Source: Bacilli bacterium
GTDB taxonomy: Bacteria; Bacillota; Bacilli; JACDOE01
Length of the DNA: 64,000 nucleotides
Assembly: GCA_041686735.1 (NCBI GenBank)
Contig: JAWLDF010000005.1
Coordinates: forward strand, 837-64,836
Direction: 5' to 3'
Shown here: one piece after another, positions 9,018 to 58,429 of the stretch
How positions within the stretch are numbered: the stretch's first letter is position 1
How the letters are laid out: every line of letters starts with the position of its first letter
Notes under the pieces: model-generated
Told to the model about the DNA's origin: nothing
The model's input: the letters and a program-made list of their open reading frames with translations, nothing else
Database searches by the model: none
Made by a program: the position numbers and the translations under genes

Positions 9018-10280
9018 TCAGGCGCTTTCTTTCGGTTTATTACTCTTGTTTGATTTCAGTTGTAAATCGGGCTTGATTTTTTCACGGACGGTCTGTTCCG
9101 TAACAACACATTTTTCAACATCATCACGGGACGGCAGCTCAAACATTACTTCAAGCATGATCGATTCGATAATCGAACGTAAGCCGCGGGCTCCCGTATT
9201 CCGTTTAATGGCCTCTTTTGCGATTTCACGCAGAGCGCCTTCTTCAAACTCCAGTTCAACCCCGTCCATTTCAAACAGTTTTTGATACTGTTTCACCAGC
9301 GCATTTTTCGGCTCGGTCAGGATACGCATCAGCGCATCTTCATCGAGCGGTTCAAGCGTACTGATAACCGGGAGTCGGCCTACAAATTCCGGGATCAAGC
9401 CGAATTTTAACAGATCCTCCGGAAGAACCTGACTCAATAGTTCCCCTTCCTTCAATTCGTCCTTTTTACCGCCTGCGGCGCCAAATCCGATCACTTTTTT
9501 ACCGATGCGGCGCTTGATGATCTGTTCAATGCCGTCAAATGCTCCACCACAAATGAACAGAACATTGGAAGTATCGATTTGAATAAACTCCTGGTGAGGA
9601 TGTTTTCTTCCTCCCTGAGGCGGCACGCTGGCTACGGTTCCTTCCAATATTTTGAGGAGGGCCTGTTGTACCCCTTCTCCGGAAACATCCCGTGTAATCG
9701 AAGGATTTTCCGACTTGCGGGCAACTTTATCGATTTCGTCGATATAAATAATCCCTTTTTCCGCCTTTTCCACATCGTAATCGGCAGCCTGAATCAATTT
9801 AAGCAAAATATTTTCCACGTCTTCACCGACGTAACCGGCTTCCGTAAGGGATGTCGCATCAGCAATCGCAAACGGTACATTTAAAATACGGGCCAGTGTT
9901 TGAGCCAGTAAAGTTTTCCCGCTGCCGGTCGGTCCGAGCATGATAATGTTACTTTTTTGCAACTCGACATCATCTGTTTTGGTATTGGAATTGATGCGTT
10001 TGTAGTGATTGTAGACAGCAACGGACATTACTTTTTTGGCTGCATCTTGACCGATGACATAATCATCCAGAATTTTTCGTATCTCCTGTGGTTTCGGTAT
10101 TTCCTGCAAATCGAGTTCTTCTTCTCCACCCAGTTCTTCTTCTACAATCTCAGTGCAAAGTTCGATACATTCATCACATATATATACGCCGGGACCGGCT
10201 ACCAATTTTCGAACCTGATCCTGAGATTTACCACAAAAAGAACACTTCAACTGTCCTTTTTCATCATTAAATTTAAACAT
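9018..10280 (-). CDS. clpX: ATP-dependent Clp protease ATP-binding subunit ClpX
   Basis: CSFCGK zinc finger, [11 protein letters not shown] loop. Confidence 0.97.
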
Positions 10281-10292
10281 GCTGTATCACCC

Positions 10293-10889
10293 CTATTTTT
10301 GCTGTTCTTTCCGGATGATCACCTGGTCAATAATCCCGTAATCCTTTGCTTCTTCAGCACTCATAAAGAAATCCCGGTCAGTGTCCTTCTCAATCCGTTC
10401 AAGCGGCTGGCCTGTACGTTCTGCATAGATACGATTCAACCTGTCTTTAGTACGTTGAATCCAATCGGCGTGAATCTTTATGTCGGATGCCTGACCACGC
10501 ACCCCGCCAAGGGGCTGGTGAATCATCACCTCGCTGTTCGGCAGGGCATATCGTTTCCCTGGTGCGCCCGCCGCAAGCAGGAAAGATCCCATACTCGCAG
10601 CCAGACCTACACAGATTGTTGAAACATCAGGTTTTATGTATTGCATGGTATCGTAAATTGCCATTCCGGCTGTAACCGAACCGCCGGGTGAGTTTATGTA
10701 AAGATTAATATCTTTCTCGGGATCCTCGGCAGCCAAAAACAACAATTGAGCCACAACAACATTGGACACATTGTCGTCAATCGGTGTGCCGATAAAGATG
10801 ATCCGGTCTTTTAACAACCTCGAATAGATATCGTAAGCTCTTTCGCCACGATTACTTTGCTCGACCACCATCGGAATCAAATGACTCAT
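10293..10889 (-). CDS. clpP: ATP-dependent Clp protease proteolytic subunit
   Basis: YINSPGG, AASMGS and MIHQP motifs; start [10 protein letters not shown] at 10889. Confidence 0.97.
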
Positions 10890-10963
10890 TAATTTTCCTC
10901 CTTTCAATCTGGTAAAACAAGGCACGAAATGGAATATCGTGCCCTGTCATCTTTTGCGTTAGA

Positions 10964-13932: not shown

Positions 13933-15303
13933 TTATGAACTATGAACGGGCGTCCTCTTTTTGTCACGATGAAATGTAAAAAGAAACAAGGTCAAGCTGA
14001 GCAAAATGAAGGCGATAAATGTGAAAAACAAATTGCTGTAAATGGCTGCAACCTTCATCTGCAACAATGGATTTATTATGAATTCAACCCGGGATACATC
14101 GAGAATTTTCCCCACAATGGAAAAACTGAAAGCTCCCGCCATGAAAAAAACCAGGTTATAAATTCCCATTCCAACCCCCGTCTGTTCCTGAGAAAGAGTA
14201 TTGGAGACGGTGCTTGCCAGAGAGGATTGCAAAAATGAGAACCCTGTGTAACACAAAATCAGTACTATACTGATGATCCAGCTTACACTTCCGGCCAGGC
14301 TGGATAATCCGAAAAAGCCCAGGGCAAGCAGAAATAATCCGATGATCACAACCGGCACTCCCCCTATCCTGTCGGTGAGGCGCCCCCCGTATGTACCCAA
14401 AAATGCAGCACTGATTGCCCCGGGAAACATGACCATCCCGATTTTAGCGGAAGTTAAATGATTGAGATCCTTTAACATCAACGGAACCATAAACATCATA
14501 CCGAAAACGGTACCGACAGCGAGAAATCCGGTAATCAGAACATTCCTGAAGCGATTGTTGCGAAAAAGCCTTGGTTGTATAAAGGGATGTTCCACCCTGT
14601 GAATGTGACGAACAAAAACAATCAGAAACAACAGGCTGACGGGAAGAATCCACCAGATAAAACGGGATATGAACAGCAAAAAGCCGGCGATTCCCGCGGC
14701 AAGAAAAATCGCTCCCCATAGATCAAATCTTCCTTCCCCCTTCTCTTCACGAGGCAGCCACTTCTGGAAAAACGGTATCGTGAACAGGGTCAGAAGTGAG
14801 ATCAAAAATAGATATCGCCAGTGCAGCATCCCGGCGATAAATCCTCCCACAATCGGTCCCACCGCTGAAGCGAATGCCACAGTGGATGCGATTGTACCGA
14901 GGACACTTCCCCTTTTTTGCGGCGGAAAATAGCGGGTGGCAACAAGCATGGCAAGAGCCGGAATCGCAGCAGATCCGGTTGCCTGTATCATGCGTCCGGC
15001 AATCAGCATCGGATACCATTGCGCAAAGGTTCCCACCAGAGAACCGACACTGAATGTCAATAAACCGATTGAAATTAAATGGCGTACGGGAAAAATATCC
15101 GCCAGTTTGCCATAGGTGACGGAACCGATAGAAAAGAAAACGATATAACCGGTAACAACCCAACTTACTTGGGAAGGTGATAATCCGAATTGTAATGCAA
15201 TATCGGGAATGGCTACATTAAACATTGTACCGTTGAGAACGGAAAAAAAGATAATGAAACTTAACAGTGGGACAATTCTTCTGATTTCTTTTTCCTTATC
15301 CAT
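13933..15303 (-). CDS. MFS DHA2-type efflux transporter, Tet(L)/Tet(K)-like fold
   Basis: About 14 TM segments; FSVLNGTMFNVAIPDIA, YGKLAD and GPIVGG motifs. Confidence 0.8.
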   Translation of the reverse strand: MDKEKEIRRIVPLLSFIIFFSVLNGTMFNVAIPDIALQFGLSPSQVSWVVTGYIVFFSIGSVTYGKLADIFPVRHLISIGLLTFSVGSLVGTFAQWYPMLIAGRMIQATGSAAIPALAMLVATRYFPPQKRGSVLGTIASTVAFASAVGPIVGGFIAGMLHWRYLFLISLLTLFTIPFFQKWLPREEKGEGRFDLWGAIFLAAGIAGFLLFISRFIWWILPVSLLFLIVFVRHIHRVEHPFIQPRLFRNNRFRNVLITGFLAVGTVFGMMFMVPLMLKDLNHLTSAKIGMVMFPGAISAAFLGTYGGRLTDRIGGVPVVIIGLFLLALGFFGLSSLAGSVSWIISIVLILCYTGFSFLQSSLASTVSNTLSQEQTGVGMGIYNLVFFMAGAFSFSIVGKILDVSRVEFIINPLLQMKVAAIYSNLFFTFIAFILLSLTLFLFTFHRDKKRTPVHSS

Positions 15304-15458
15304 TGTTTCTCTCCTCTCCCATATCCACATCCCATCATATCATATATCTTCCGGTTTTTAATAAACAAATCCCGCTGTCGGGACACTCACCACAGATACG
15401 TACGCCCCATACATTGTATTGACATGGATTTTTTTATGGGAAGAAAGGAGTTGAATGG

Positions 15459-46037: not shown

Positions 46038-47225
46038 TCATTTTTTTAATTTAAGGACTTTCTTCAGTAGATCAACTGTTCTCGAACCTACCAGGTCATC
46101 CGCCCTCTCAATGACATCGCGGATGACCTTTAATACTGATTGTTCTCCGTTCCAGTGCTCTTCAATTATCTGTGGATCGACATCGACCAGAATCGCTTTC
46201 AGTGCCATCACGCCGAGTACAAGATCATCGAGAAATCCCAGAGGACCCAGCAAAAATTCGGGAATTACATCCACCGGAGTAATAAAGTAAGCTACAGCCG
46301 CACCGACGATTGCTTTAGACTTAAGCGGAACACGGGGGTCTTTTAACAGACGGGCCAAAAGAACAAAGATGTCGGGTACAAGAAGCAGGTATCCGGCGTT
46401 TTTTTCTGCCCTCTTCCCGCCCTTTTCCTGTATAAATATTCGAATTCGTTCGCGCAGACGATCGTAAAAACGCTGGTGTTCTTCTTCAAGACGAATCGTT
46501 TGATCATCAGACGTGACGACCTTCCCGCGAATTTTCTCATGTTGTGACGTTTCGATTTCCACACGGCTCTCCTGTTCTTCATACACGTTTAGTGAAGGTT
46601 CATCCCAGCCGATGATCGAAATATCCACATTCATTCTGCGATCAAGTAAGGTGATATTCTTGATCCTGACCAGTTCCAGCAATGATTTGCCGAACCATTT
46701 TTTTTGTTGAAGTTGTTGAAAGCGAGGGACTTGATCCAGATCGAGTATCATCCGCTTACCTTCGAATGTGATTCCCTCGGTATCACGCAATACATAGCCG
46801 ATCACGGATTGTCCGGTGATGGCCTCAAGAAGAAACTTCCCCGTGCCAAACAAAAGTCGCTTCCCCAGCGATACGTCATCGAGGGGAATTTCTTCCCGAT
46901 ATGAAAGAACAAAACGATGTTGACCGGGATGAAAAACACACTGATCGATCCAGATTTTATAATGGCCCGTAACTTTTTCTTCTTTTACTTCAACATCGGC
47001 CGTGACTTCAAAATAACCGTCACGAATACGAATATCCAGCTTTTCAACCTCGGAAGGCAATTGCTTGATAAAAAGAGGAAGATACTTCTGATTCAGTGTC
47101 GTTTCATCAATGACAATTCTACCCTTCGTTAATTCCAGCCATTCAATGTTACCGAGAATCTGTGCCAGTTCTCTGCGGTGTTCCCGCAAATAATTGACCG
47201 TTTTCTTGACATTTTCTTTAAACAT
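46038..47225 (-). CDS. YkvA/DUF1232-domain protein with a long unknown N-terminal extension
   Basis: C-terminal AYFITPVDVIPE..GPLGFLDD motif. Confidence 0.75.
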   Translation of the reverse strand: MFKENVKKTVNYLREHRRELAQILGNIEWLELTKGRIVIDETTLNQKYLPLFIKQLPSEVEKLDIRIRDGYFEVTADVEVKEEKVTGHYKIWIDQCVFHPGQHRFVLSYREEIPLDDVSLGKRLLFGTGKFLLEAITGQSVIGYVLRDTEGITFEGKRMILDLDQVPRFQQLQQKKWFGKSLLELVRIKNITLLDRRMNVDISIIGWDEPSLNVYEEQESRVEIETSQHEKIRGKVVTSDDQTIRLEEEHQRFYDRLRERIRIFIQEKGGKRAEKNAGYLLLVPDIFVLLARLLKDPRVPLKSKAIVGAAVAYFITPVDVIPEFLLGPLGFLDDLVLGVMALKAILVDVDPQIIEEHWNGEQSVLKVIRDVIERADDLVGSRTVDLLKKVLKLKK

Positions 47226-47341
47226 TTTTTCTCACTCTTTCCTCACCTGTATAGAATAGTACGCTAATATTATGGCTTTAAAGTCATTATCTCATGAAAA
47301 AAGGACAAGTCAATTGAGATTGACCTGTCCTTTTAATCTTC

Positions 47342-47827
47342 TTAAGAAGGATTGGATTGCTCCAGATTTAAAAAATACTGTGAAATCTCAGCAACAACCG
47401 GATCTTCCGAACCCTCGCGGTGAAGTTTCAATGTCTGTTCCACGAATTCTTCCAGGCTGGAGAGCAAAGTGGTTTCATTTTCAAAACGAACATGTAACCA
47501 CTTATCACGGTCAGTCGGCTGCTCACCATACACCAGTACGATTGATTCGGGTTTCATGGTAAGCAAAACATCCCAGGAATTCATTTCCCGATCGGGCCCG
47601 ACTGCTACTATTTGCGGAAAATAGACCTCGATCGTACGCTCCCCGTGAAAAATATAGAGGATCAATGCCGTTTCATTGTCTACCAGTCCGGCCCCCCAGC
47701 GACAATCACCCTTAACGGAGGATTCCTGAATATCCTGGTCGTTTAAATCGCTATCCGGATCCCATAAGTGTAATTCTTTTTCAGATTGATCTCTTCCCAG
47801 TGCAACGGGATGTACACGATTCAGCAA
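47342..47827 (-). CDS. Hypothetical protein
   Basis: RBS GGGAGGG; 161 aa ORF filling the gap. Confidence 0.6.
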   Translation of the reverse strand: MLNRVHPVALGRDQSEKELHLWDPDSDLNDQDIQESSVKGDCRWGAGLVDNETALILYIFHGERTIEVYFPQIVAVGPDREMNSWDVLLTMKPESIVLVYGEQPTDRDKWLHVRFENETTLLSSLEEFVEQTLKLHREGSEDPVVAEISQYFLNLEQSNPS

Positions 47828-47888: not shown

Positions 47889-50800
47889 TTACTGGTCCAA
47901 TTTGTAATAATCCGGATGCGGCTTTAACGGACGCATCATCCAGTAAGGACGGCGCATTCCATGCTCCTTCGGTGCGGGACGGGTTAATTTTAACCACTCA
48001 TGGTAAACTTCATGCGCTTTTTCCGTATCCACCTGGATATCTCCATACTGGTCGTTCGCTCCGGGCAATTCCGCTTTTACTTTCTGGTGCCAGCAGTGCA
48101 TCCCGCTGATCGGATCCGGTTGAACGAGATGAATGATGTTTTGATGCACACCGGCATCTTTCCACCAGATTCTCTCGGAATCAGGGTCCTCACTCTTCCA
48201 AGGTTGCACGCCATGGACCATTTTCATTTTCCATTTTGAGCCTTCTTTCTCCAGTTTGACGACTGAGGAGTTCCAGCGGTCACTACCTTTGTCCTCATGT
48301 AATCTCCATCTTCCCAGATGGTGTGAGCAGGCGATGACTCCCGTACGGATACCGTCCGTAACCCAGACTTTATCTACAAAATATCCGCTGACGGTACTTA
48401 TTTTTAACAGATCGCCTGTTTTTACTCCCATTTTGCGGGCATCGACCGGATTCAACCAGATCGGGTTGCTGTGAGCAATCTCATACAACCACTTGGCCCC
48501 GTTCGTTCGGGAGTGAATCAGGGTCGGCAGACGGAACGTCGGCAAGAGAATGTACTCCTGGTTATCCCAGTCAATGTGGTCCGGATGAACCTGAGTGATA
48601 ATATGCGGCATCTTCGCCCGCTCTTCCTTATTACGCGGATAAATCGGAACCGCGTATTCCGGCCATCCCCAATCACGCAGGGTGGAGGAGAAGAACTCCA
48701 GCTTTCCGGAAGGCGTCGGGAATCCCTGAACGGGTTTTCCGTCAACGACCACTCCGACACGGACCTCACCGTTCTTATTTTTAAACGGTCCCGGATAAGG
48801 ACGGAGGTTGGTTTTCGGCGGCGGAGTTTTAACCCAGACACCGGGTTCTGCTTCGGAATCAGAGGAAGCGACAGTTGAAGGCTCTTCCGCAGTTGCCGCA
48901 GCTTCGGAATATCCTTTGTCTTCTGTTTTCGGAGCAACAACGGAAGCCTCTTTCAGAATCTCTTCACCAATCGGCTTCTCATGTTGCGAATAAACATCGT
49001 CCGTGATCTGGAAGGAACCGTATTTTCTCATATACTCCATCGGAGTAAGTCCTTCTTTTGCGGCAGCTTCAGGCAGACCCGGTACGGAATTTTCAAATAT
49101 CCAGCGATAATATTCTTCAATGGTTACTTTCTCGCCCGGTCGATAGGGTGATTCAAAGTATTGACGAATACCCATGGATCCATCGGGATCGATTCGCCAG
49201 GACAATTCAATCCAGAACTCATTTTCTTCCCAGACTTCACCCGGATTAGCCTCATAGGTAAACTCAATTCTCTGGCCGTCTTTCTCCTTTTGAACGCGAA
49301 GTACCGGCTGACGGAAACCGATCCACTGTGCAGCGTGGGTTTCATAACTGTGCAAATCGTGACGTTCCGGTCCGAGACCCATCGGCAGTACATAGTCCGC
49401 ATATTGGGCCGATTCGTTCCAGGTAGGTGCAAGTGCAGCATGAACGCCCACTTTTTCTTCATCCTGAAGCATTTCAATCCACGAAAATCCATCCGGGAAT
49501 GTCCACACCGGATTTAATACGCGGGTGAAATAGACATCCAGTTTCTTATTTTTATGCTTTAAAATATGGGGCAGGAGGAATCCCATTTCAAAGTTGGCCA
49601 GCGGGAATTCTCTCGGAAAATGATTTTCGTTCCAGAACTTCACATTTTGATGCGGTTCGTTAAACGGCGCCGGAACGAACTTGACCCATGAGTTGGGGAG
49701 CATACTTCCCGGGGTTCCTACCGCACCCATCAATACGTTTAAGAAAAACAGTGCCCGGGCAATCATCCAGCCGCCACGGTGCCCCGCTGAAGCATTACGC
49801 CAGACGTTGGACGAAAAAGCAGTTCCAGCCCGCGCTATCTCGTTGGCTACGTCAATGATCATCTGCGCTTTTACACCTGTCTCTTCTTCTGCAAATTCAG
49901 GTGTATACGCTTTGTACATGTCCTTCATCAGGGCAATGAAATCTTCAAAAGTATCACCTTTCGGCATTTCACTGATGAATCCCGTGTCATGGAGACTTTT
50001 GAGATATTCACGGTCGGCCAGAAGTTCATCCCAGTTGACCCATTTACGTACAAAATCAAAGTTGAACAGATCGTTCTGAATAAGATGGTTAGCCATCGCC
50101 AGTAACATGGCCGTTTCAGTTCCCGGCCAGGGTGCCATCCAGTAATCGGCTTTTGAAGCGGTATTGGAAAGGCGTGTATCAATGACAGCGATTTTGGCTC
50201 CTCTTTCCTTTGCCTCCATAATTCGTTGCGCATTGGGATTGAAATAGTGTCCCGATTCAAGATGCGCACTCATCATCAGGATAAAGCGTGCATTGCTGTA
50301 ATCCGGTGCGGGACGGTCCATTCCCATCCAGTACATGTAACCGGTACGCGCTCCGGAGGAACATACGTTGGTGTGGGAGTTATGACCGTCTACACCCCAG
50401 GCAGAAAGAACACGCTCGGTAAAGAGGTCTTCACCGGGACGGCCTACATGGTAAACGACTTCATCTTTACGATTTTCCTGGATCGCCTTGCGGATACGTG
50501 GAGCCAGATCATTCAGGGCTTCATCCCATGTGATGCGCTCCCATTCCCCGCTGCCACGGGGGCCTTTACGCTTCATCGGATATAATACACGTTCAGGGTT
50601 AGTCACCTGTCCGATGGTAGCCGGGCCTTTGGCACAGTTTCGGCCACGGCTGGCAGGGTGCAGAGGATGTCCTTCAAGTTTACGAATCTTGCCGGTTTCT
50701 TTATCGATATATGCCAGAAGTCCGCACGCTGCCTCGCAGTTAAAGCAGACGGTGGGAACCAGTCGATAGTTTTTCTTTACCTGGCGCGGCCAGGATTTCG

Positions 50801-50900
50801 AATCTAATTCTTCCCAGTCATCCCAACGATCCGGCGGCGGAAAAGAACTCAGTTTGCCAAATCGCTGAAACGGTTTGTTTGCAGTTGTACTCACAATCAT
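47889..50900 (-). CDS. DMSO-reductase-superfamily Mo/W-bisPGD oxidoreductase catalytic subunit, no Tat leader
   Basis: CFNCEAACG...CAKG 4Fe-4S motif; NSHTNVC putative Cys metal ligand; VIDTRLSNTASKAD; C-terminal cofactor-binding domain. Confidence 0.9.
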   Translation of the reverse strand: MIVSTTANKPFQRFGKLSSFPPPDRWDDWEELDSKSWPRQVKKNYRLVPTVCFNCEAACGLLAYIDKETGKIRKLEGHPLHPASRGRNCAKGPATIGQVTNPERVLYPMKRKGPRGSGEWERITWDEALNDLAPRIRKAIQENRKDEVVYHVGRPGEDLFTERVLSAWGVDGHNSHTNVCSSGARTGYMYWMGMDRPAPDYSNARFILMMSAHLESGHYFNPNAQRIMEAKERGAKIAVIDTRLSNTASKADYWMAPWPGTETAMLLAMANHLIQNDLFNFDFVRKWVNWDELLADREYLKSLHDTGFISEMPKGDTFEDFIALMKDMYKAYTPEFAEEETGVKAQMIIDVANEIARAGTAFSSNVWRNASAGHRGGWMIARALFFLNVLMGAVGTPGSMLPNSWVKFVPAPFNEPHQNVKFWNENHFPREFPLANFEMGFLLPHILKHKNKKLDVYFTRVLNPVWTFPDGFSWIEMLQDEEKVGVHAALAPTWNESAQYADYVLPMGLGPERHDLHSYETHAAQWIGFRQPVLRVQKEKDGQRIEFTYEANPGEVWEENEFWIELSWRIDPDGSMGIRQYFESPYRPGEKVTIEEYYRWIFENSVPGLPEAAAKEGLTPMEYMRKYGSFQITDDVYSQHEKPIGEEILKEASVVAPKTEDKGYSEAAATAEEPSTVASSDSEAEPGVWVKTPPPKTNLRPYPGPFKNKNGEVRVGVVVDGKPVQGFPTPSGKLEFFSSTLRDWGWPEYAVPIYPRNKEERAKMPHIITQVHPDHIDWDNQEYILLPTFRLPTLIHSRTNGAKWLYEIAHSNPIWLNPVDARKMGVKTGDLLKISTVSGYFVDKVWVTDGIRTGVIACSHHLGRWRLHEDKGSDRWNSSVVKLEKEGSKWKMKMVHGVQPWKSEDPDSERIWWKDAGVHQNIIHLVQPDPISGMHCWHQKVKAELPGANDQYGDIQVDTEKAHEVYHEWLKLTRPAPKEHGMRRPYWMMRPLKPHPDYYKLDQ

Positions 50901-50931: not shown

Positions 50932-52482
50932 TTAACTTAACGGAACGGACTGACCTGCCTGCACATAAGCATGTTCATAAGCCAGCACACCGATCAATGC
51001 CAAGAGCGCTGTGATTCCGTAGATACTTGCAAATCCGAGTAACAACGGAATCAAACCACCGGCAATTAATCCCGTCCAGAAGTAACCACGGAAACGTCCT
51101 TTGATCATGTTGTGAGCAGCTTTTTCTGCATCCGCAGTCATGTGCGGTATAACCATTTCACTGAGTATCAATGCTACGTGAGCAGCTACAGAAACAATCA
51201 ATGTGATATTAACAATTTGGAGTGCATCAGCCGGCAAACTGATAAACCATGACAAAATAATAAAAGAAGCTGCACCGGTCATTACGGACTGAACAAATAA
51301 ATGTACCGGCAATACGGGATTCTGCCATAAATCACGCCCTTTGGATTGAGCGAACAGGAAAGCGGTGTAGATGGCAGTAAGAATAGCAAGTACGACTCCC
51401 GGCCACCACAATGCTTTAGCCAGTGCCTGATTGGATGTTAATCCCGCAGCAAAAAGAAGCACGAGAACCAACGTATATCCGGCGATGATAAACGCACCGC
51501 GAACCAGCCACGATTTCCATTGCGGCCGGGTAAAAATTCGATAAAATCGTTCCGGATGAGACAATTTGGAAATGAGCAACAATCCTGTTAATGCTAAAAA
51601 GAAACCGCCAATTACTGCTGTCGTTGTTGTCCAGACCGACTCCAGTTCATGTCCGAACAATCCTAAAAGAACGTAGATTAAAAACACTCCGGCAGCAATG
51701 GACTTTGTCCATGAATATAGGGAAACACGCCAGTCCCAGTATGGCTTATGTGGTACGTCGTAGGCAACACGCGCGGCGGCTATGCTGTTAAAAGAAGCTT
51801 CAACCTCTTCAACGGGATAACCTTCATTCTGTTCCGACCACATATGCATGCCTGTATACTGGGCAGCCGTAGGAGATAATGTGGCTTCGTTCGCACCCTT
51901 ATAGAAAACCTTGGGATTCGTTCCTTTTTCGGGTTTGCGAACATCTACTTTTTGTCTTGAGATAATCTGTGATACTTCACTTTCAGGGTCGTTCAGATTT
52001 CCGACAATGATCGCTTCCTCAGGACATACGACAACACATGCCGGCTCCATTCCCTGATCAATTCTGTGGGCACAGAAGTTACATTTCTCAGCGCTGTTAC
52101 TGCTCGGACTGATATGAATTGCATCATACGGACATGCGGTCATGCATGCCTTACATCCGATACAAACATCGCGATCAAAATCAACAATTCCGTCCGGACG
52201 TTTAAACATAGCCGTTACCGGGCAGACCGGTACACAGGGTGCATCTTCACACTGGTTACAACGGGTAACCTGAAAATGCCGGCTGACTTCCGGAAAAATA
52301 CCGACCTCGACCTGTTTTACATAAGTACGGTTGACGCTTAACGGCACTTCGTTTTCTGATTTACATGCCGTGGAACAGGCGTGGCAACCGATACACTTAT
52401 CCTGGTCGATGACCTTACCCCACTTGACAGAGCTACTCTGGTTGGAATCTACTAGTTCCAGTTCTTTAAGCAATGGGTCCAT
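50932..52482 (-). CDS. Fused 4x[4Fe-4S] ferredoxin (DmsB/PsrB-like) and NrfD/PsrC membrane anchor
   Basis: CIGCHACSTAC, CNQCEDAPCVPVCP, CIGCKACMTACP and CNFC...C motifs, then about 8 TM segments with KLSHPERF. Confidence 0.9.
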   Translation of the reverse strand: MDPLLKELELVDSNQSSSVKWGKVIDQDKCIGCHACSTACKSENEVPLSVNRTYVKQVEVGIFPEVSRHFQVTRCNQCEDAPCVPVCPVTAMFKRPDGIVDFDRDVCIGCKACMTACPYDAIHISPSSNSAEKCNFCAHRIDQGMEPACVVVCPEEAIIVGNLNDPESEVSQIISRQKVDVRKPEKGTNPKVFYKGANEATLSPTAAQYTGMHMWSEQNEGYPVEEVEASFNSIAAARVAYDVPHKPYWDWRVSLYSWTKSIAAGVFLIYVLLGLFGHELESVWTTTTAVIGGFFLALTGLLLISKLSHPERFYRIFTRPQWKSWLVRGAFIIAGYTLVLVLLFAAGLTSNQALAKALWWPGVVLAILTAIYTAFLFAQSKGRDLWQNPVLPVHLFVQSVMTGAASFIILSWFISLPADALQIVNITLIVSVAAHVALILSEMVIPHMTADAEKAAHNMIKGRFRGYFWTGLIAGGLIPLLLGFASIYGITALLALIGVLAYEHAYVQAGQSVPLS

Positions 52483-52581: not shown

Positions 52582-52610
52582 ATGACCTATAACAAAGTGT
52601 TATAGGTCAT
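52582..52610. promoter_or_regulatory. 12-bp perfect inverted repeat containing a T-N11-A LysR box; candidate operator
   Basis: atgacctataac-aaagt-gttataggtcat. Confidence 0.55.
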
Positions 52611-53503
52611 GTGTGATCGCGCTGTTGCCGAAAAAAATTCAGCAGTTTGTCTACACCCTGGCGTCGAAAACGCTGTGGAGCGAGAACAATCCACAGACTT
52701 CTTTTAATTCGAAAATCTTTTATTTTTACTTCTTTCAAGAGATTGAATTCCAGTTCCCTTTTTACTGTCATCCGAGATAAAAAAGCTACACCCAGACCGG
52801 CCTCTACGGCACCTTTAATCGCCTGTGTACTGCCGATTTCCATCGCAGTCACAATACGATCAAGGATCCCCTCTTTTTGTAAAGCATTTTCTACGACCAT
52901 TCTCGTTCCCGAACCGACCTCGCGCCATATCAAACGTTCTTTTACAATCTCGTCAGGATGAATCTCGTTTCTGTCAGACCAGGGATGATGAACCGGGCAG
53001 ATCAGAACCAGTTCATCATCAGCAAACTTCTCGGCAATGAGTGATTCATCGTTGACACTTCCTTCGATCAATGCAATATCGATGGTATGTTCGGCAAGAC
53101 TGTCGAGAATTTCCCGGGTATTGGCAATGCGAATAGTCAGATTTAAATCCGTTTCCTGTTGCTTAAATTTTTCAAGTAAGCGGGGAAGCAAATATTCACC
53201 GATAGTCAATGTGGCACCGACACAAATTTGGGCCTGGTCCTTCCCTTTGTAAGTGGACAATGCCTCTTTCGCCCGTTCGTGATCTTCCAGTATCGCTTTC
53301 ATGTAGGGATATAAAATTTTTCCTGCTTCCGTAATCTGCAATTTGCCGCCGGTTCTATCAAATAATAACACATCGTAATACTCTTCCAGCGCCTGGATCT
53401 GTCGGGTCACAGCCGGTTGCGAGACAAAGAATTTGCGTGCCGCTTCACTGATACTGCCATTTTCAACGACAAGACAAAACATTTTAAAACTATCCAGATT
53501 CAC
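52607..53503 (-). CDS. LysR-family regulator (CysL-like / selenium-metabolism-associated type)
   Basis: SISEAA..VSQPAVTRQIQALE HTH; GATLTIGEYLLP and REVGSGTR motifs; GTG start at 53503. Confidence 0.88.
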   Translation of the reverse strand: MNLDSFKMFCLVVENGSISEAARKFFVSQPAVTRQIQALEEYYDVLLFDRTGGKLQITEAGKILYPYMKAILEDHERAKEALSTYKGKDQAQICVGATLTIGEYLLPRLLEKFKQQETDLNLTIRIANTREILDSLAEHTIDIALIEGSVNDESLIAEKFADDELVLICPVHHPWSDRNEIHPDEIVKERLIWREVGSGTRMVVENALQKEGILDRIVTAMEIGSTQAIKGAVEAGLGVAFLSRMTVKRELEFNLLKEVKIKDFRIKRSLWIVLAPQRFRRQGVDKLLNFFRQQRDHT

Positions 53504-53579
53504 TCGATCACAACCTTTTATCCGTTTCGTTCTCTTTGTATATATCATACCAAAAAAATCAGGATCATGTATGAATATA

Positions 53580-54719: not shown

Positions 54720-56843
54720 CTATTCCGATTTAATGCGAAGCAATCGAATGCCGTTGACCGTCACAAGAATGGTGGCACCCATGTCTGCCAGAATGGCAAG
54801 CCATAACGTAAGCCATCCCGGAAAAACGGCAAGTACAGCCAGAATTTTAACAGCCAGAGAAAAAGTAATATTCTGTTTGATCACGCGCAGGGTGGCGCGA
54901 CTTAATTTTAGCGCATAGGGGATCTTTGTCAGATCGTCTCCCATGATGACGACATCCGCAGTCTCCATTGCCGTATCTGTTCCCGCTCCCCCCATGGCTA
55001 TTCCTACACTGGAGACAGCCAGCGCCGGAGCATCGTTAATGCCATCTCCGACCATGGCCGTTGTTCCATAACGATTGTTCAACTCATGGACCCGTTGCAA
55101 TTTGTCTTGAGGCATCAACTCGGAATATACTTCATCAATTCCCGATCCCTGCGCAATCGCGTCCGCTGTACGGTGATTATCTCCCGTAAGCATAACCACT
55201 TTTTTCACAGAGAGGGATTTTAATTTATGAATCACAGAAGTCGCCTGTGGGCGAATTGAATCTGCTATGCTGATCCAGCCCATGACCTCCAGCTTTCCGG
55301 CAAGGCCGATTACCGTTTTCCCTTCATTTTGCCATTGTTTTATTCTTTGCTCCTGTTCCGGGGGGATTTGTATTTCTTTTCGGATCATTTCCGGGCTCCC
55401 GACCAGATATAATTCTCCATTGATTCGGCCCCTGACCCCCTGACCCGTGATGGACTCGAATTGTTCCGCTTCCGGTGCTTCAACATCATCATGCCGTGCC
55501 CTGTTGACGATTGCCCGTGCCAGGGGATGTTCCGATTTGGACTCCAGGGCTGCGACCAGTGCCAAAATTTTTTTGCGGCTCTGTTCATCTTCCGGCTGTT
55601 GCAGCGGGAGGATATCAATCACCCTCGGTTCCCCGGACGTTAAAGTGCCCGTTTTGTCAAAAGCAATCACCTTTGCTTTCCCCAACTCTTCGAGGTAAAT
55701 TCCCCCTTTTACCAGCACACCCTGCCTCGCTGCCGAACCAATCGCACTGACAATGGCGACCGGTGTAGATACTACCAGCGCACACGGGCAGGCAACAACA
55801 AGTAATGCAAGACCGCGGTAAATCCAGTCATGCCATCCCCCTCCGAAAAAGAGGGGTGGAATCAAAATAATGGAAAGAGCGAGTACCATGACAACCGGCG
55901 TATAATATTTTGCAAAACGGTCGACGAATGCCTGGGACGGAGCCCTTTCCGACTGGGCCTCTTCAACTAAATGAATGATTTTGGTTAACGTGTTATCCTC
56001 AACTGTTCTGGTCACTTTAATTTTTAAAAAGCCGTACTGGTTGAGTGTCCCTGCAAAGACTTCATCATTCTTTTGTTTCTCAACGGGAATGGACTCCCCG
56101 GTAATGGCCGCCTGGTTAACCGAAGATTCTCCTTCAATCACCACACCATCCATGGCAATTTTTTCACCCGGCTTTACCAGCATCGTATCTCCCGCTTCAA
56201 TTTCTTCTACCGCAAGTTCCAGTTCCCGTCCCTCACGGATGATCACCGCTTTTTTGGGGGAGATCTTCATCAAAGAGCGGATGGCATTTCGCGCTTTATC
56301 CATCGAATAATTTTCCAGCAACTCACTGACGGCAAACAAGAAAGAGATGACGGCTGCTTCGCTCCATTCTCCGATCAGGACGGCTCCGCTCACAGCAACC
56401 AACATCAGCGTATTCATATCAAAATTAAAACGGAGTAGCCCCCTCCACCCTTTTTTTGCAGTAGCGTAGCCCCCGATCGCAATGGTCAGAGCATATAATC
56501 CATAGACGAAAAGCGGAGGGCTTTGTAAAAACGATGTCATCCAGGCAAGGATGAGGAAAATTCCCGATATTCCCGCCCGCCTTGCATCCCGGCTCTTCCA
56601 GACAGACTCCGTCTCCCCAACCTGCATCCCCTGCGGAATCGCCCGAATCCCGTCAAAGGCACCGGTACGATTAATCTGTTCCAGAGAAACGTCACCCTCG
56701 ATTTGCAATTTGCCTGCACCAAAATTAAGTTTCACATTACGCACGCCGGGTAATTTTTTTAAATCCCGCTCAAACTGAGCGGCACAATCCGCTCAGGTAA
56801 GTCCCTGCAAATGATATTGCTTATTCTCATGAGATGTACTCAT
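54720..56843 (-). CDS. cadA: P1B-2 Cd/Zn/Pb-exporting ATPase with an in-frame TGA at codon 17 (probable selenocysteine in a UxxC HMA motif); 707 aa if read through
   Basis: MSTSHENKQYHLQGLT*ADCAAQFERDLKKLPGV is in frame with the 674-aa ORF; ATG overlaps the cadC stop (ATGA) with RBS GGGAGGGG; CPC, DKTGT, SEHP and ADMG motifs. Confidence 0.88.
56766..56795 (-). promoter_or_regulatory. Candidate bacterial SECIS element immediately 3' of the in-frame TGA
   Basis: TGA-gcggattgtg-CCGCTCA-GTT-TGAGCGG; 7-bp stem, loop starting GU, 17 nt from the UGA to the loop. Confidence 0.65.
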
Positions 56844-57214
56844 TTGCTTTTCCCCTCCCGATGATGCATCAATGCAAGCTCAATAATGTCTGTTACGTGC
56901 TGATCGTCCAGGGAATAAAACACCAGTTTTCCCCTTTTTTCATATCTGGCAAGCCCCATATTGTACAGCAAACGAAGGTGATGGGAGGCTGTTGCGGTAG
57001 AGCATCCGACAATATTGGCTGCATCACAAACGCACAACTCCTTTTCCCTCGTCAGCGCGTAAGCAATCCGCACCCGGGTATCGTCAGCGAGGGCTTTAAA
57101 TAACCCGGAAAGTCCTTCCGTCACTTCTACTTCTTTTCGCAATTTCTCCACAATTTCTTCGTTATAGCAATAGATTTCACACTGGTGGGGATCCGAACCT
57201 CTATTCTGTGACAT
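56840..57214 (-). CDS. cadC: CadC-type ArsR/SmtB repressor
   Basis: CEIYC and ELCVCD metal sites; FKALADDTR and ASHHLR motifs. Confidence 0.9.
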   Translation of the reverse strand: MSQNRGSDPHQCEIYCYNEEIVEKLRKEVEVTEGLSGLFKALADDTRVRIAYALTREKELCVCDAANIVGCSTATASHHLRLLYNMGLARYEKRGKLVFYSLDDQHVTDIIELALMHHREGKSK

Positions 57215-57257
57215 GAGTCTTCTCCTTTCATAGAGGATACGTTCTTAATATTTTATT

Positions 57258-57333
57258 ATTCAAAAGATGATTTGAATGTTCTGGTTGCTGTTATTTTACA
57301 CCAGATCCAATCCATAATCAAATCATAATTTGA
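57258..57333. promoter_or_regulatory. Two CadC-type operator inverted repeats
   Basis: attcaaa-agatga-tttgaat (57258-57277) and tcaaat-cata-atttga (57318-57333), resembling the pI258 cad operator. Confidence 0.65.
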
Positions 57334-57385
57334 GTATAAAAAAGACCGCATCGGATATCCTGCCCGATCGGTCTTTGTCCAAAGA

Positions 57386-58429
57386 TCACCTGAATCCTCG
57401 GATATACTGTTTCGGTCCCTCATAAGGGATTCCGGCTTTGTGTTTCACCCTCAAAATCCACTGTGGATCTCGCAATAATTCTCTCCCCAAAAACACCAGA
57501 TCGGCACGCTCATTACCAATGATCTCTTCCGCTTGTTCCGGGCAGGTAATCAATCCGACGGCTCCCGTGGGAATACCCACTTCTCTTTTAATCCGTTCAG
57601 CAAAAGGAACCTGATAACCGGGATGAACCTTCGGCGGACGAACAGGAAGAATCGCGCCGGTTGAAACATCGATCAAATCCACTCCGCATTCTTTTAAAAG
57701 ACGGGCAATTTCCACACTGTCTTCGATGGTGACCCCTCCATCGACATAATCGACGGCTGATATGCGGACAAACAACGGGAACTCCTTGCCCCATTCACCC
57801 CGAACCGCTTCGATTACTTCACGAACAATACGAAAACGATTTTCAAGGGATCCTCCGTATTCGTCCGTCCTTTTGTTCGTAACAGGCGATAAAAATTCGT
57901 TCAGCAGGTAACCATGGGCGGCATGAATTTCAATGACATCAAAGCCGGCCTGTCTCGCTCTTCGTGCAGCCCTGGAAAATGCACTCACCACATCATCAAT
58001 ATCCTGATGAGTCATCTCCTTCGGAGTTTTCCTTCCTTCCTGAAAAGGAATGGGGCTGGGAGCGATGATTTCAATTTCTTCATCCAATTCTGCTTTGCGA
58101 CCGGCATGAGCCAGTTGAATTCCCGTTTTCACACCATGTTCACGGGCAAAATTGACGATTTTTTTAAGACCTTCGATATGTAAATCGTCCCATAATCCCA
58201 GATCATGAGGGCTGATTCTGCCCCTGCTTTCCACCGCGGTAGCCTCAAGAATCATCAGGCCTACTCCGCCTGCGGCCCGCGCACCGTAATGTACGATGTG
58301 CCAATCGGTTACTTCCCCCTTCTCTGTTGCGGAATACATACACATCGGCGACATCACGATTCGGTTGGGCAGGGTAACATTTTTGACGGTATAAGGTTCG
58401 AAAATTTGCTTGATCTTCATGTCTGACAC
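57386..58429 (-). CDS. namA: NADPH dehydrogenase NamA (old yellow enzyme, YqjM-type)
   Basis: [23 protein letters not shown] and PGYQV motifs. Confidence 0.92.

Follow-up and report, generated by a model that had tools for sequence, protein, structure and literature searches.

The window, by which we mean the whole 64-kb stretch of DNA that was analysed, carries a two-gene cadC-cadA operon on its minus strand. The first gene, cadC (56840..57214), encodes a metal-sensing repressor of the ArsR/SmtB family (124 aa; 87.9 bits against NCBIfam NF033788, cut-off 55) that has a C-x3-C motif near its N-terminus (QCEIYCY) and an ELCVCD motif; we take these to match the ligands of the alpha3N site in pI258 CadC. 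A consensus scan places a sigma-70-like promoter candidate, TTGATT-17-TAAAAT, upstream of cadC (57293..57321, minus strand), as a pattern match only, since the count of promoter-like sites in the region is not above the shuffled expectation. Between this candidate and cadC lies an operator-like inverted repeat, ATTCAAA-N6-TTTGAAT (57258..57277, no strand assigned), whose arms are complementary at 7/7 positions and which recurs upstream of cadC in two relatives (two copies at locus L081, and again at L082). From the general behaviour of ArsR/SmtB repressors, this repeat is likely the CadC binding site.

The second gene, cadA (54720..56843, minus strand), opens at ATG 56843-56841, where it overlaps the TGA stop of cadC as ATGA, and runs for 707 codons plus a stop, with one in-frame TGA at codon 17 (56793..56795), the proposed selenocysteine (Sec) codon in place of the first Cys of the HMA CxxC. 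A ribosome-binding site, GGGAGGGG (56852..56859, minus strand), precedes this start, and its GGAGG core (56858-56854) ends 10 nt before the ATG. The mechanical ORF list begins the ATPase at GTG 56744 (54720..56744, 674 aa); we regard this GTG and the one at 56735 (together 56733..56744, minus strand) as artefactual truncated starts within the HMA domain, and there is no Shine-Dalgarno sequence upstream of either. The extension upstream of the listed start reads MSTSHENKQYHLQGLT-TGA-ADCAAQFE. A preliminary description of this DNA had proposed that the frame continues to ATG 56843, with a strong ribosome-binding site and the overlap with the cadC stop, that the TGA falls on the first Cys of the HMA motif (QGLT-TGA-ADCAAQFE), and that annotation pipelines would call the gene truncated. 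The frame, the start and the position of the TGA were confirmed by reading the minus strand, and the expected truncation was borne out by close homologues in the protein database, 3/3 of which have their start placed within the HMA domain; one of them, P0001, is 671 aa long and is without the PF00403 domain. A protein search with the 77-aa N-terminal domain returned no candidate, no catalogued protein has as many as three 5-residue words in common with the true N-terminus, and this N-terminus is unannotated in the searched database for all nine of the TGA-bearing genes described below.

Apart from the TGA, cadA encodes an ordinary pump. The protein scores 649.2 bits against TIGR01525 (cut-off 346.25) and 546.9 bits against the cadmium family TIGR01512 (cut-off 313.5) in an NCBIfam profile search. 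The ATPase motifs are intact: TGES (56091-56102), CPC (55782-55790), DKTGT (55644-55658), HP (55521-55535) and GDGIND (55032-55049), and a C-terminal DxG is present along with the CPC in TM6. The combination of CPC and ADMG is, we presume, that of P1B subtype 2 (Zn/Cd/Pb), and by its profile scores and motifs the predicted product is a P1B-2 heavy-metal ATPase. The N-terminal HMA metal-binding domain spans approximately residues 8-72 (56628..56822, minus strand) and is split by the UGA after its first beta strand. An alignment pairs residues 6-71 with residues 3-68 of the metal-binding domain of Listeria CadA (2AJ0; E = 2.3e-16), and in that solved domain the counterpart of position 17 is the first of the two metal-binding Cys residues in C-T-N-C. 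Three Cys-type homologues (P0119, P0005 and P0010), like 2AJ0, have Cys at the position of the UGA, where decoding of the TGA as Sec would give U-A-D-C; a UGA at a metal-ligand Cys fits Sec.

Immediately 3' of the TGA is a 17-nt hairpin (56766..56782, minus strand; CCGCTCA-GTT-TGAGCGG) that we propose as the SECIS. Its 7-bp stem begins 10 nt after the UGA and its GUU apical loop 17 nt after the A of the TGA, in agreement with the stem and loop given in the preliminary description. By the rules set out in bSECISearch and the E. coli literature, a bacterial SECIS is a 17-nt minihelix that is placed approximately 10-11 nt beyond the UGA and carries GU in its apical loop. The 17-mer is unique in the window, with 0.06 matches expected when up to 3 mismatches are allowed; its folding energy alone is only modestly unusual (z = -2.3), and the hairpin is short. 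No SECIS family was matched in Rfam at gathering or E-value thresholds, a result that is uninformative, as we know of no Rfam model for a bacterial SECIS of this kind.

The TGA is not peculiar to this gene. The set of TGA-bearing genes consists of nine sequences: the window gene, two syntenic relatives (L081 and L082) and six metagenome contigs returned by a scan with the pattern T-TGA-x-D-C-A-A-Q-F-E (relatives include those in SRR34348018, SRR13776092 and GCA_017656255.1). The codon-17 TGA, the reading frame and the hairpin are kept in all eight further genes (L081-L088). The ATPases of the syntenic relatives are 85% and 65% identical to that of the window, and the gene order namA-cadC-cadA-S8 peptidase-LysR-molybdoenzyme is shared. 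Among the metagenome genes, at least three diverged groups can be told apart, whose proteins share 38-55% identity with that of the window and whose contigs have 58-66% GC; a ~700-aa ATPase follows the TGA in 4/4 of the contigs that reach far enough, and an arsR-family gene lies upstream of the ATPase in three of those tested (overall, such a gene is found at L081, L082, L083, L085, L088 and L089). The 16 codons before the TGA are in frame in every sequence, with synonymous changes such as GGA/GGT, CTT/TTA and TTG/CTC, and encode the first HMA beta strand, Y/F-x-L/V-x-G-L/M/I-T; to judge from this pattern of substitution, they are translated. Across the whole gene dN/dS is 0.08-0.11, and 0.07-0.26 in the HMA domain, at a dS of 0.86 between the window and L081 and at saturation against L082. 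Purifying selection acts, across several lineages, on the UGA, on the hairpin and on the reading frame to either side of the UGA. The nearest Cys-type homologue, P0119 (57% identical), has TGC at this position and no hairpin, and in a scan of genome contigs with the full protein the matches listed, at no more than 53% identity, were all Cys-type. The preliminary description had named an alignment of orthologs for TGA/Cys alternation and a conserved hairpin as a check on its proposal, and a private nonsense mutation or a sequencing error as ways in which it could fail; both the alternation and the hairpin were found, the private mutation is rejected by the two syntenic and six metagenome genes that keep TGA and hairpin alike, and an error is excluded by the agreement of nine assembled sequences, of which eight differ from one another around the TGA.

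Conservation of the hairpin is far beyond chance across these relatives. Its cells are paired in 98% of cases across the 8 distinct sequences, and one stem pair shows a compensatory change in which both partners are replaced (C-G to U-A) in three distinct sequences; this covariation, confined to one pair, is probably a single evolutionary event. As the retrieval pattern for the metagenome genes fixed many hairpin bases, only the free positions count as independent evidence, and the third bases of GCT, CAG, TTT and GAG, which the pattern left free, are invariant even on the contigs of 58-66% GC. The resulting consensus, GCYGCUCAGUUUGAGCRG, is almost invariant in lineages of 46-66% GC and approximately 40-55% protein identity. 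Counted from the TGA, 30 nt of the window gene match L082 at 30/30 positions, compared with 64% over the whole gene, which makes this the best 30-nt stretch of the gene; 9/9 synonymous codons are kept there, against a background of 0.41. Such a pattern of identity indicates that constraint at the RNA level acts on the stretch just 3' of the TGA. The region 3' of the UGA folds at -8.1 to -12.2 kcal/mol in the nine TGA genes, versus a mean of -3.3 kcal/mol for the matching region of 47 Cys-type HMA sites, the Cys-type loci from the contig scan being reused here as controls. Among the genes examined, the hairpin is found only in those that bear the TGA. A SECIS-like hairpin of conserved structure is present directly 3' of the UGA, as judged by conservation, pairing and folding energy.

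A second helix is possible at the same site. The 5' arm of the proposed SECIS can pair either with its own 3' arm or with the TGA region, giving two mutually exclusive helices; the alternative, hairpin A, is an 8-bp stem formed by CUGAGCGG and CCGCUCAG (56775..56796, minus strand) that contains the UGA. It is almost as well conserved as the proposed SECIS: 97% of its cells are paired, and the C that takes part in its closing pair, at a synonymous position of the ACC codon before the TGA, is invariant in 9/9 sequences. Internal A.C mismatches occur in L081 and L084. As a candidate for the SECIS itself, hairpin A was ranked second, given these two internal mismatches, the lack of any compensatory change and the expectation that a ribosome with the UGA in its A site would melt it.

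The preliminary description had also called for a search for selA, selB, selC and selD. Neither the 64-kb window nor any of the fetched loci contains one of these genes; no sel gene emerged among 30 large window ORFs annotated with NCBIfam, tblastn with E. coli SelA and SelB against all fetched loci gave no match, and no tRNA-Sec was found in the window, in L081-L088 or in L090. Three window ORFs of 465, 354 and 631 aa, considered as sel genes, proved to be an MFS transporter, a HEAT-repeat-like protein and an asparagine synthase. Plasmid SelA seeds for Firmicutes came from Enterococcus, Ligilactobacillus and Terrisporobacter only and were set aside as too distant to pick out the SelA of this lineage. 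By comparison of its Lon protease, the host belongs to a Bacillales lineage near Ammoniphilus, Aneurinibacillus and Brevibacillus. The genera around this lineage include carriers of the Sec trait: SelD, SelA and SelB are found in Aneurinibacillus terranovensis and several Brevibacillus strains (PMC5029168 Table S1). In the host genome TGA serves as an ordinary stop, ending 17/45 long window ORFs, including cadC, lon, clpX and namA. A scan of the window for TGA-split ORFs as possible second selenoprotein genes gave 86 mechanical candidates, among which only cadA has a long conserved ORF on the far side and a plausible start.

Taken together, SelB/SECIS-directed insertion of Sec at codon 17, giving a U-x-x-C metal site, is very probably the best explanation of this sequence. 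An in-frame TGA also invites the view that the gene is dead, with a nonsense mutation having knocked out either the pump as a whole or its HMA domain, and with the 48 nt upstream of that mutation left as a decaying remnant. Gene callers do treat cadA as truncated, and no Sec machinery is seen in the window. A dead codon, though, would not outlast a divergence such as this one: the TGA is kept in nine sequences over ~40-86% protein identity, the upstream codons remain in frame with synonymous substitutions, and dN/dS is ~0.1 for the whole gene (0.07-0.26 for HMA) while dS runs from 0.86 to saturation, so that a pseudogene is highly improbable. Less probable still, to the point of being negligible, is a sequencing or assembly error, or a TGA read as a sense codon. 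An error is an a priori possibility only, set against the same TGA in both isolate-like and metagenome data, and a sense reading conflicts with the use of TGA as a stop throughout the window.

Two further readings were weighed. Leaky UGA decoding occurs in Bacillus-type bacteria and read-through can be favoured by a structure immediately 3' of the stop, so that the hairpin could stimulate a SelB-independent, near-cognate decoding of UGA as Trp or Cys; that no Sec machinery was found in the window or the fetched loci also speaks for this. Such read-through is nevertheless very unlikely. The UGA coincides with a metal-ligand Cys, a position at which Sec and Cys classically alternate, the geometry (17-nt minihelix, 10 nt spacing, GU in the apical loop) fits the bacterial SECIS rules, and the family is already classed as selenoproteins and found in Sec-decoding organisms; moreover, a Trp at a metal ligand would be purposeless, and for Cys a plain TGC codon would serve better. 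Alternatively, the first 16 residues could be a regulatory peptide and the ATPase could start at GTG 56744 or 56735 without an intact HMA domain. P1B ATPases can remain capable of transport when their N-terminal metal-binding domain is missing, and hairpin A, which lies over the UGA, could be regulatory. Against this, the two GTG codons are without a ribosome-binding site and would start translation partway through the HMA fold, although purifying selection acts on this domain to either side of the UGA and its alignment with 2AJ0 runs from end to end; residues 18-33 (ADCAAQFERDLKKLPG) are conserved as protein, which would be unexpected of an untranslated spacer. A leader peptide followed by a truncated pump is thus hardly credible.

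The conservation of TGA and hairpin in relatives and the rejection of both an error and a private mutation support the reading of the preliminary description, a Cd/Zn exporter with a predicted Sec. In the mechanism that we propose for Sec insertion, CadC would occupy the ATTCAAA-N6-TTTGAAT operator and come off it in the presence of Cd, Pb or Zn, as expected from its family. Translation of cadA starts at ATG 56843, where the ATGA overlap couples it to the cadC stop, and the ribosome meets the UGA at codon 17. The hairpin just downstream, acting as the SECIS, would recruit SelB-GTP-Sec-tRNA(Sec) and Sec would be inserted. The product would be a full-length P1B-2 ATPase with an ordinary membrane CPC site and catalytic core, whose HMA domain would coordinate metal with a selenolate-thiolate pair, U17-x-x-C20, in place of a Cys pair. 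Sec may change the soft-metal affinity or the kinetics of this regulatory metal-binding domain. Synthesis of the pump would also depend on the supply of selenium, given that only 16 residues are made when recoding fails. Going beyond a simple Cys-to-Sec substitution, the two exclusive helices might constitute a translational switch, with the SECIS marking a mobile cadCA module whose pump is gated by selenium; since the UGA at codon 17 precedes any functional part, synthesis would then be all-or-none and set by SelB-Sec-tRNA(Sec), i.e. by selenium status. We consider this extension unlikely.

The gene is mis-annotated wherever it was seen, and inventories of resistance genes and of selenoproteomes alike miss it. 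Its product would be among the few selenoproteins in which Sec is predicted to act as a metal ligand rather than as a redox centre. A spore-forming Bacillales host and a two-gene operon offer a convenient system in which to study the role of a selenolate ligand with Cd/Zn/Pb (or Hg), and one equally suited to the question of whether metal resistance becomes selenium-dependent. In addition, the near-invariant 17-nt hairpin is a compact and well-supported candidate SECIS from Bacillales that can be used as a search pattern.

The preliminary description was correct that cation-transporting ATPases with Sec have appeared in selenoproteome surveys: a Sec-containing heavy-metal ATPase family is listed in PMC1976440, PMC2398784, PMC5029168, PMC9312934 and PMC13188914, and the finding is less novel for that reason. 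In 2016 the family counted 32 genes in 25 organisms (PMC5029168 Table S3), and a 2026 review describes its members as predicted, not demonstrated, to contain Sec. The cadA gene of the window is most likely a real, unannotated additional member of this predicted family. It shares with the published genes the P1B heavy-metal ATPase architecture, a single Sec at the first UxxC position, a score above the TIGR01525 cut-off, and the character of a metal-related selenoprotein, not a redox enzyme; this likeness, to ABB15669.1 and the other 31 reported genes, is drawn from their published descriptions. The archetype, ABB15669.1, is presumably from Carboxydothermus, as its accession range suggests, whereas the host here belongs to an aerobic-type, spore-forming Bacillales lineage.

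Compared with the Cys-type CadA proteins of Firmicutes (the cluster P0114 of Staphylococcus aureus pI258 CadA, and Listeria monocytogenes CadA, 2AJ0/2AJ1), cadA has the same cadC-cadA layout and P1B-2 core motifs, 51-57% identity over the full length and an HMA domain that aligns end to end. It differs in having TGA for TGY at the first ligand Cys, and in the residues that follow this site, AAQFE(R/Q) in the window type, constrained by the hairpin, and A(A/G)KFE(K/Q) in the Cys forms; it also has one HMA domain, while most of the close Cys-type matches have two or more. Like the SECIS elements bound by SelB, e.g. that of E. coli fdhF, the proposed element is a 17-nt minihelix inside the gene, next to the UGA on its 3' side, whose apical loop begins with G followed by U approximately 20 nt from the UGA, and in both the UGA can pair in a lower or alternative helix. 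Unlike the fdhF type, the window hairpin has a loop of only 3 nt and no bulged U, and its UGA-containing helix competes with the minihelix rather than extending it. Finally, the HMA-like fold and a Sec ligand in a GxxCxxC-type loop are shared with the 'UxxU metal-binding (seleno)protein' family NF041115 and with Sec-type MerP/MerT. The match of the cadA N-terminus to NF041115 is weak (E = 3e-4; 20.7 bits, cut-off 95), and we rejected membership in that family, the resemblance being limited to the HMA fold: in cadA the domain is fused to a pump and would carry one Sec (UxxC), not two (UxxU).

The P1B-2 Cd/Zn/Pb ATPase gene cadA (54720-56843, minus strand) is called from internal start codons: GTG 56744 in the mechanical ORF list (674 aa), and GTG 56735 in the stored protein-database gene call (P0001, 671 aa, with no HMA domain recorded). 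When the minus strand is read over 56500-57400 and 54720-56843 is translated, the frame is open upstream as far as ATG 56843, which forms an ATGA overlap with the stop codon, TGA, of the upstream 124-aa gene and is preceded by the ribosome-binding site GGGAGGGG (56859-56852, minus strand). The product then begins MSTSHENKQYHLQGLT, followed by an in-frame TGA at codon 17 (56795-56793, minus strand) and ADCAAQFERDLKKLPGV; ten nt past the TGA begins the hairpin CCGCTCA-GTT-TGAGCGG (56782-56766, minus strand). The upstream ATG, the ATGA overlap, the codon-17 TGA and the 3' hairpin reported in the preliminary description are thus all present. When codon 17 is read as Cys, the ATPase reaches 649 bits against TIGR01525 and 547 bits against the cadmium-family model TIGR01512, both well over cut-off, and all of its catalytic motifs are intact. 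Seventeen of the window's 45 long ORFs end in TGA, and the code is therefore the standard one.

The preliminary description took this TGA, at the first Cys of the HMA GxxCxxC motif, to be a selenocysteine (Sec) codon; the alternatives weighed here are a private nonsense mutation and a sequencing error. The only close homologues from the protein search were P0002 (85% identical) and P0004 (65%), likewise called at ~671-674 aa without an HMA domain. At the DNA level, the loci of two relatives from two sequencing runs (L081 and L082), syntenic with the window over >20 kb, both carry TGA at codon 17 in the same frame, and the ATG ahead of it either overlaps the stop of cadC or directly adjoins it. 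Six more contigs (L083-L088) came from JGI metagenomes scanned for DNA encoding T-TGA-x-D-C-A-A-Q-F-E, a pattern whose information content leads us to expect about one chance match. All six have the TGA within the HMA context Y/F-x-L/V-x-G-L/M/I-T-U-A-D-C; the four that are long enough have a ~700-aa ATPase ORF after it, and an arsR-family gene was seen upstream in three of those tested. A private nonsense mutation is rejected by these relatives, and an error is excluded by nine assembled sequences carrying the TGA, eight of them distinct around it. Since the proteins of the metagenome genes share only 38-55% identity with that of the window and the contigs have 58-66% GC, the Sec-type form is old or mobile and no recent accident. 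The AT-rich core of the putative SECIS, GCUCAGUUUGAGC, is identical in the six contigs despite their GC content, which suggests that the Sec-type N-terminus arose once, long ago, or spread horizontally.

The N-terminal region also bears the marks of a translated domain. The 16 codons upstream of the TGA stay in frame between the window and L082, with purely synonymous differences (GGA/GGT, CTT/TTA, TTG/CTC), and dN/dS is 0.08-0.11 for the whole gene and 0.07-0.26 for the HMA domain (codons 1-75). Synonymous divergence (dS) from the window is 0.86 for L081 and saturated for L082. Residues 6-71 align to the solved Listeria CadA metal-binding domain 2AJ0 (E = 2.3e-16), codon 17 aligning with the leading Cys of that domain's C-T-N-C motif, and the gene-caller starts lie in mid-fold of the domain and lack a ribosome-binding site. 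Selection before and after the TGA, the end-to-end alignment and the mid-fold starts indicate that the domain is made in one piece, and therefore that the UGA must be decoded. As predicted, annotation pipelines have truncated the gene: all three close homologues are called from an internal GTG, and among 5.8 billion protein-database clusters none has three 5-residue words in common with the 77 residues of the true N-terminus; gene callers seem to truncate this Sec-type cadA clade systematically.

No other 30-nt stretch of the 2.1-kb gene is as well conserved between the window and L082 as the one that starts with the TGA (30/30 identical, against 64% gene-wide), and 9/9 synonymous codons there are unchanged compared with a background of 0.41. 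Folding yields two mutually exclusive helices: hairpin B, the 7-bp stem with a GUU loop flagged earlier, and hairpin A (56775-56796, minus strand), an 8-bp helix CUGAGCGG/CCGCUCAG in which the UGA codon and its flanks pair with the 5' arm of hairpin B. Over the eight distinct sequences 98% of cells are paired in hairpin B and 97% in hairpin A, figures to be read with the metagenome search pattern having pre-set many hairpin bases; pattern-free positions are nonetheless invariant even at 58-66% GC, namely the third bases of ACC, GCT, CAG, TTT and GAG, and the next codon, C-N-G. In three distinct sequences one pair of hairpin B has changed in a compensatory way from C-G to U-A, silently as GCC to GCT and at the cost of CGG Arg to CAG Gln, and hairpin B has one mismatch, in the terminal pair; hairpin A has no compensatory changes among the eight and an internal A.C mismatch in L081 and L084. 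Hairpin A is closed by the third base of the ACC codon ahead of the UGA, a synonymous C that is invariant in 9/9 sequences; this helix may act as a switch or be the analogue of a lower stem. In 47 Cys-type HMA sites from 80 genome loci the corresponding region has a mean folding energy of -3.3 kcal/mol, compared with -8.1 to -12.2 in the nine TGA genes. At locus L089 the Cys-type gene closest to the window's, P0119 (57% identical), reads TGC GCG AAC TGC GCC GCG AAA TTT GAG CAA and forms no stem in the region after the TGC. Hairpin B is thus specific to the TGA genes among the sites compared. Rfam holds no model matching the hairpin region.

The 124-aa upstream gene product (cadC, 56840-57214, minus strand) is an ArsR/SmtB metalloregulator (NF033788, 87.9 bits vs cut-off 55) with the CadC motifs C-x3-C and CVC. 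Upstream of cadC lies a conserved operator-like repeat, ATTCAAA-N6-TTTGAAT, at 57258-57277 and 57314-57337 in the window, 9424-9443 and 9482-9501 in L081, and 9511-9530 in L082; L081 has two copies, and the second is degenerate in the window and L082. The cadC-cadA operon may have a tandem-operator architecture. By analogy with its family, CadC would sit on this repeat and repress the operon until it binds Cd, Pb or Zn. On the reading with most support, translation of cadA would then start at ATG 56843, hairpin B would recruit SelB with Sec-tRNA(Sec) at the ribosome mRNA entrance for Sec insertion at codon 17, and the regulatory HMA domain of the pump would bind metal via a Se/S pair. To reach the UGA the ribosome must melt hairpin A, by which the 5' arm of hairpin B is freed. 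Conservation shows recoding only indirectly; that SelB binds, that selenium is incorporated and that metal affinity or exchange rate gains from it are inferences. The UGA precedes every functional part, so failed recoding would leave a 16-residue peptide and no pump, and metal resistance would hang on selenium supply, as previously suggested. The conserved UGA, the UxxC at the Cys position and the conserved 3' hairpin support the proposed Sec-containing Cd/Zn pump, and on these sequence comparisons we consider Sec decoding of the cadA UGA highly probable.

Lon protease places the window in a spore-forming Bacillales lineage, with identities of 97% and 87% to two assemblies derived from sequencing runs, 87% to the 'Bacillaceae bacterium' MAG GCA_017656255.1 (syntenic at locus L090), and 77-80% to Ammoniphilus, Aneurinibacillus, Microaerobacter and Brevibacillus. 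The gene clpP (10293-10925, minus strand) lies between tig and clpX, in the order tig-clpP-clpX-lonB-lonA-ysxC, an arrangement that recurs in L090; Bacillus subtilis is not known to have it, and it fits placement near Brevibacillus and Aneurinibacillus. An MFS transporter gene (13933-15330, minus strand) has as its best match a Tet(L)/Tet(K)/Tet(45) efflux model at 322 bits, far under the cut-off of 650; it encodes a DHA2-family efflux pump, and this match does not justify the name of tetracycline-resistance gene. SelD, SelA and SelB are listed for Aneurinibacillus terranovensis and several Brevibacillus strains (Peng et al. 2016, PMC5029168), and in genera near the window lineage the Sec trait occurs, though patchily. 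No sel genes or tRNA-Sec occur in the 64-kb window or any fetched locus. Two genes downstream of cadA, a LysR regulator (52607-53548, minus strand) best matches NF040786, 'selenium metabolism-associated LysR' (233 bits, just below the cut-off of 250), a weak hint of Sec machinery. Beside it, in an order kept in L081 and L082, are genes for a fused 4Fe-4S/NrfD protein (516 aa; 50932-52482, minus strand) and a molybdopterin oxidoreductase of 1003 aa, of the Psr/Phs/Ttr/DMSO-selenate reductase type (47889-50900, minus strand). Together they could be an operon for the reduction of chalcogens or oxyanions, perhaps with a link to selenium metabolism. After the molybdoenzyme genes, the window, L081 and L082 share two conserved ORFs of 161 and 395 aa (46038-47827, minus strand) with no NCBIfam match; the relatives' counterpart of the latter carries DUF1232.

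A Sec-type heavy-metal ATPase is not a new kind of selenoprotein. In line with the earlier remark that such ATPases occur in selenoproteome surveys, Sec-containing metal ATPases were already among known selenoproteins listed in 2007-2008 (PMC1976440, PMC2398784); a 2016 census counted 32 genes in 25 organisms (PMC5029168), and reviews of 2022 and 2026 list the family, the latter still as predicted (PMC9312934, PMC13188914). The window gene has each of the defining features examined, namely family membership, UxxC at the Cys position, a conserved UGA and a conserved 3' hairpin. Membership in the UxxU metal-binding family NF041115 is rejected (20.7 bits vs cut-off 95). By its sequence, cadA is a new, unannotated member of this known, computationally predicted selenoprotein family. 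The family itself will not surprise a specialist; the locus offers a compact, well-supported putative SECIS in a simple operon, and possibly a first experimental handle on a selenoprotein with Sec as a transporter metal ligand. In bacterial SECIS elements a minihelix follows shortly 3' of the UGA and its apical loop begins with G and U; hairpin B fits these rules as a 17-nt minihelix 10 nt past the UGA with G/U at +21/+22.
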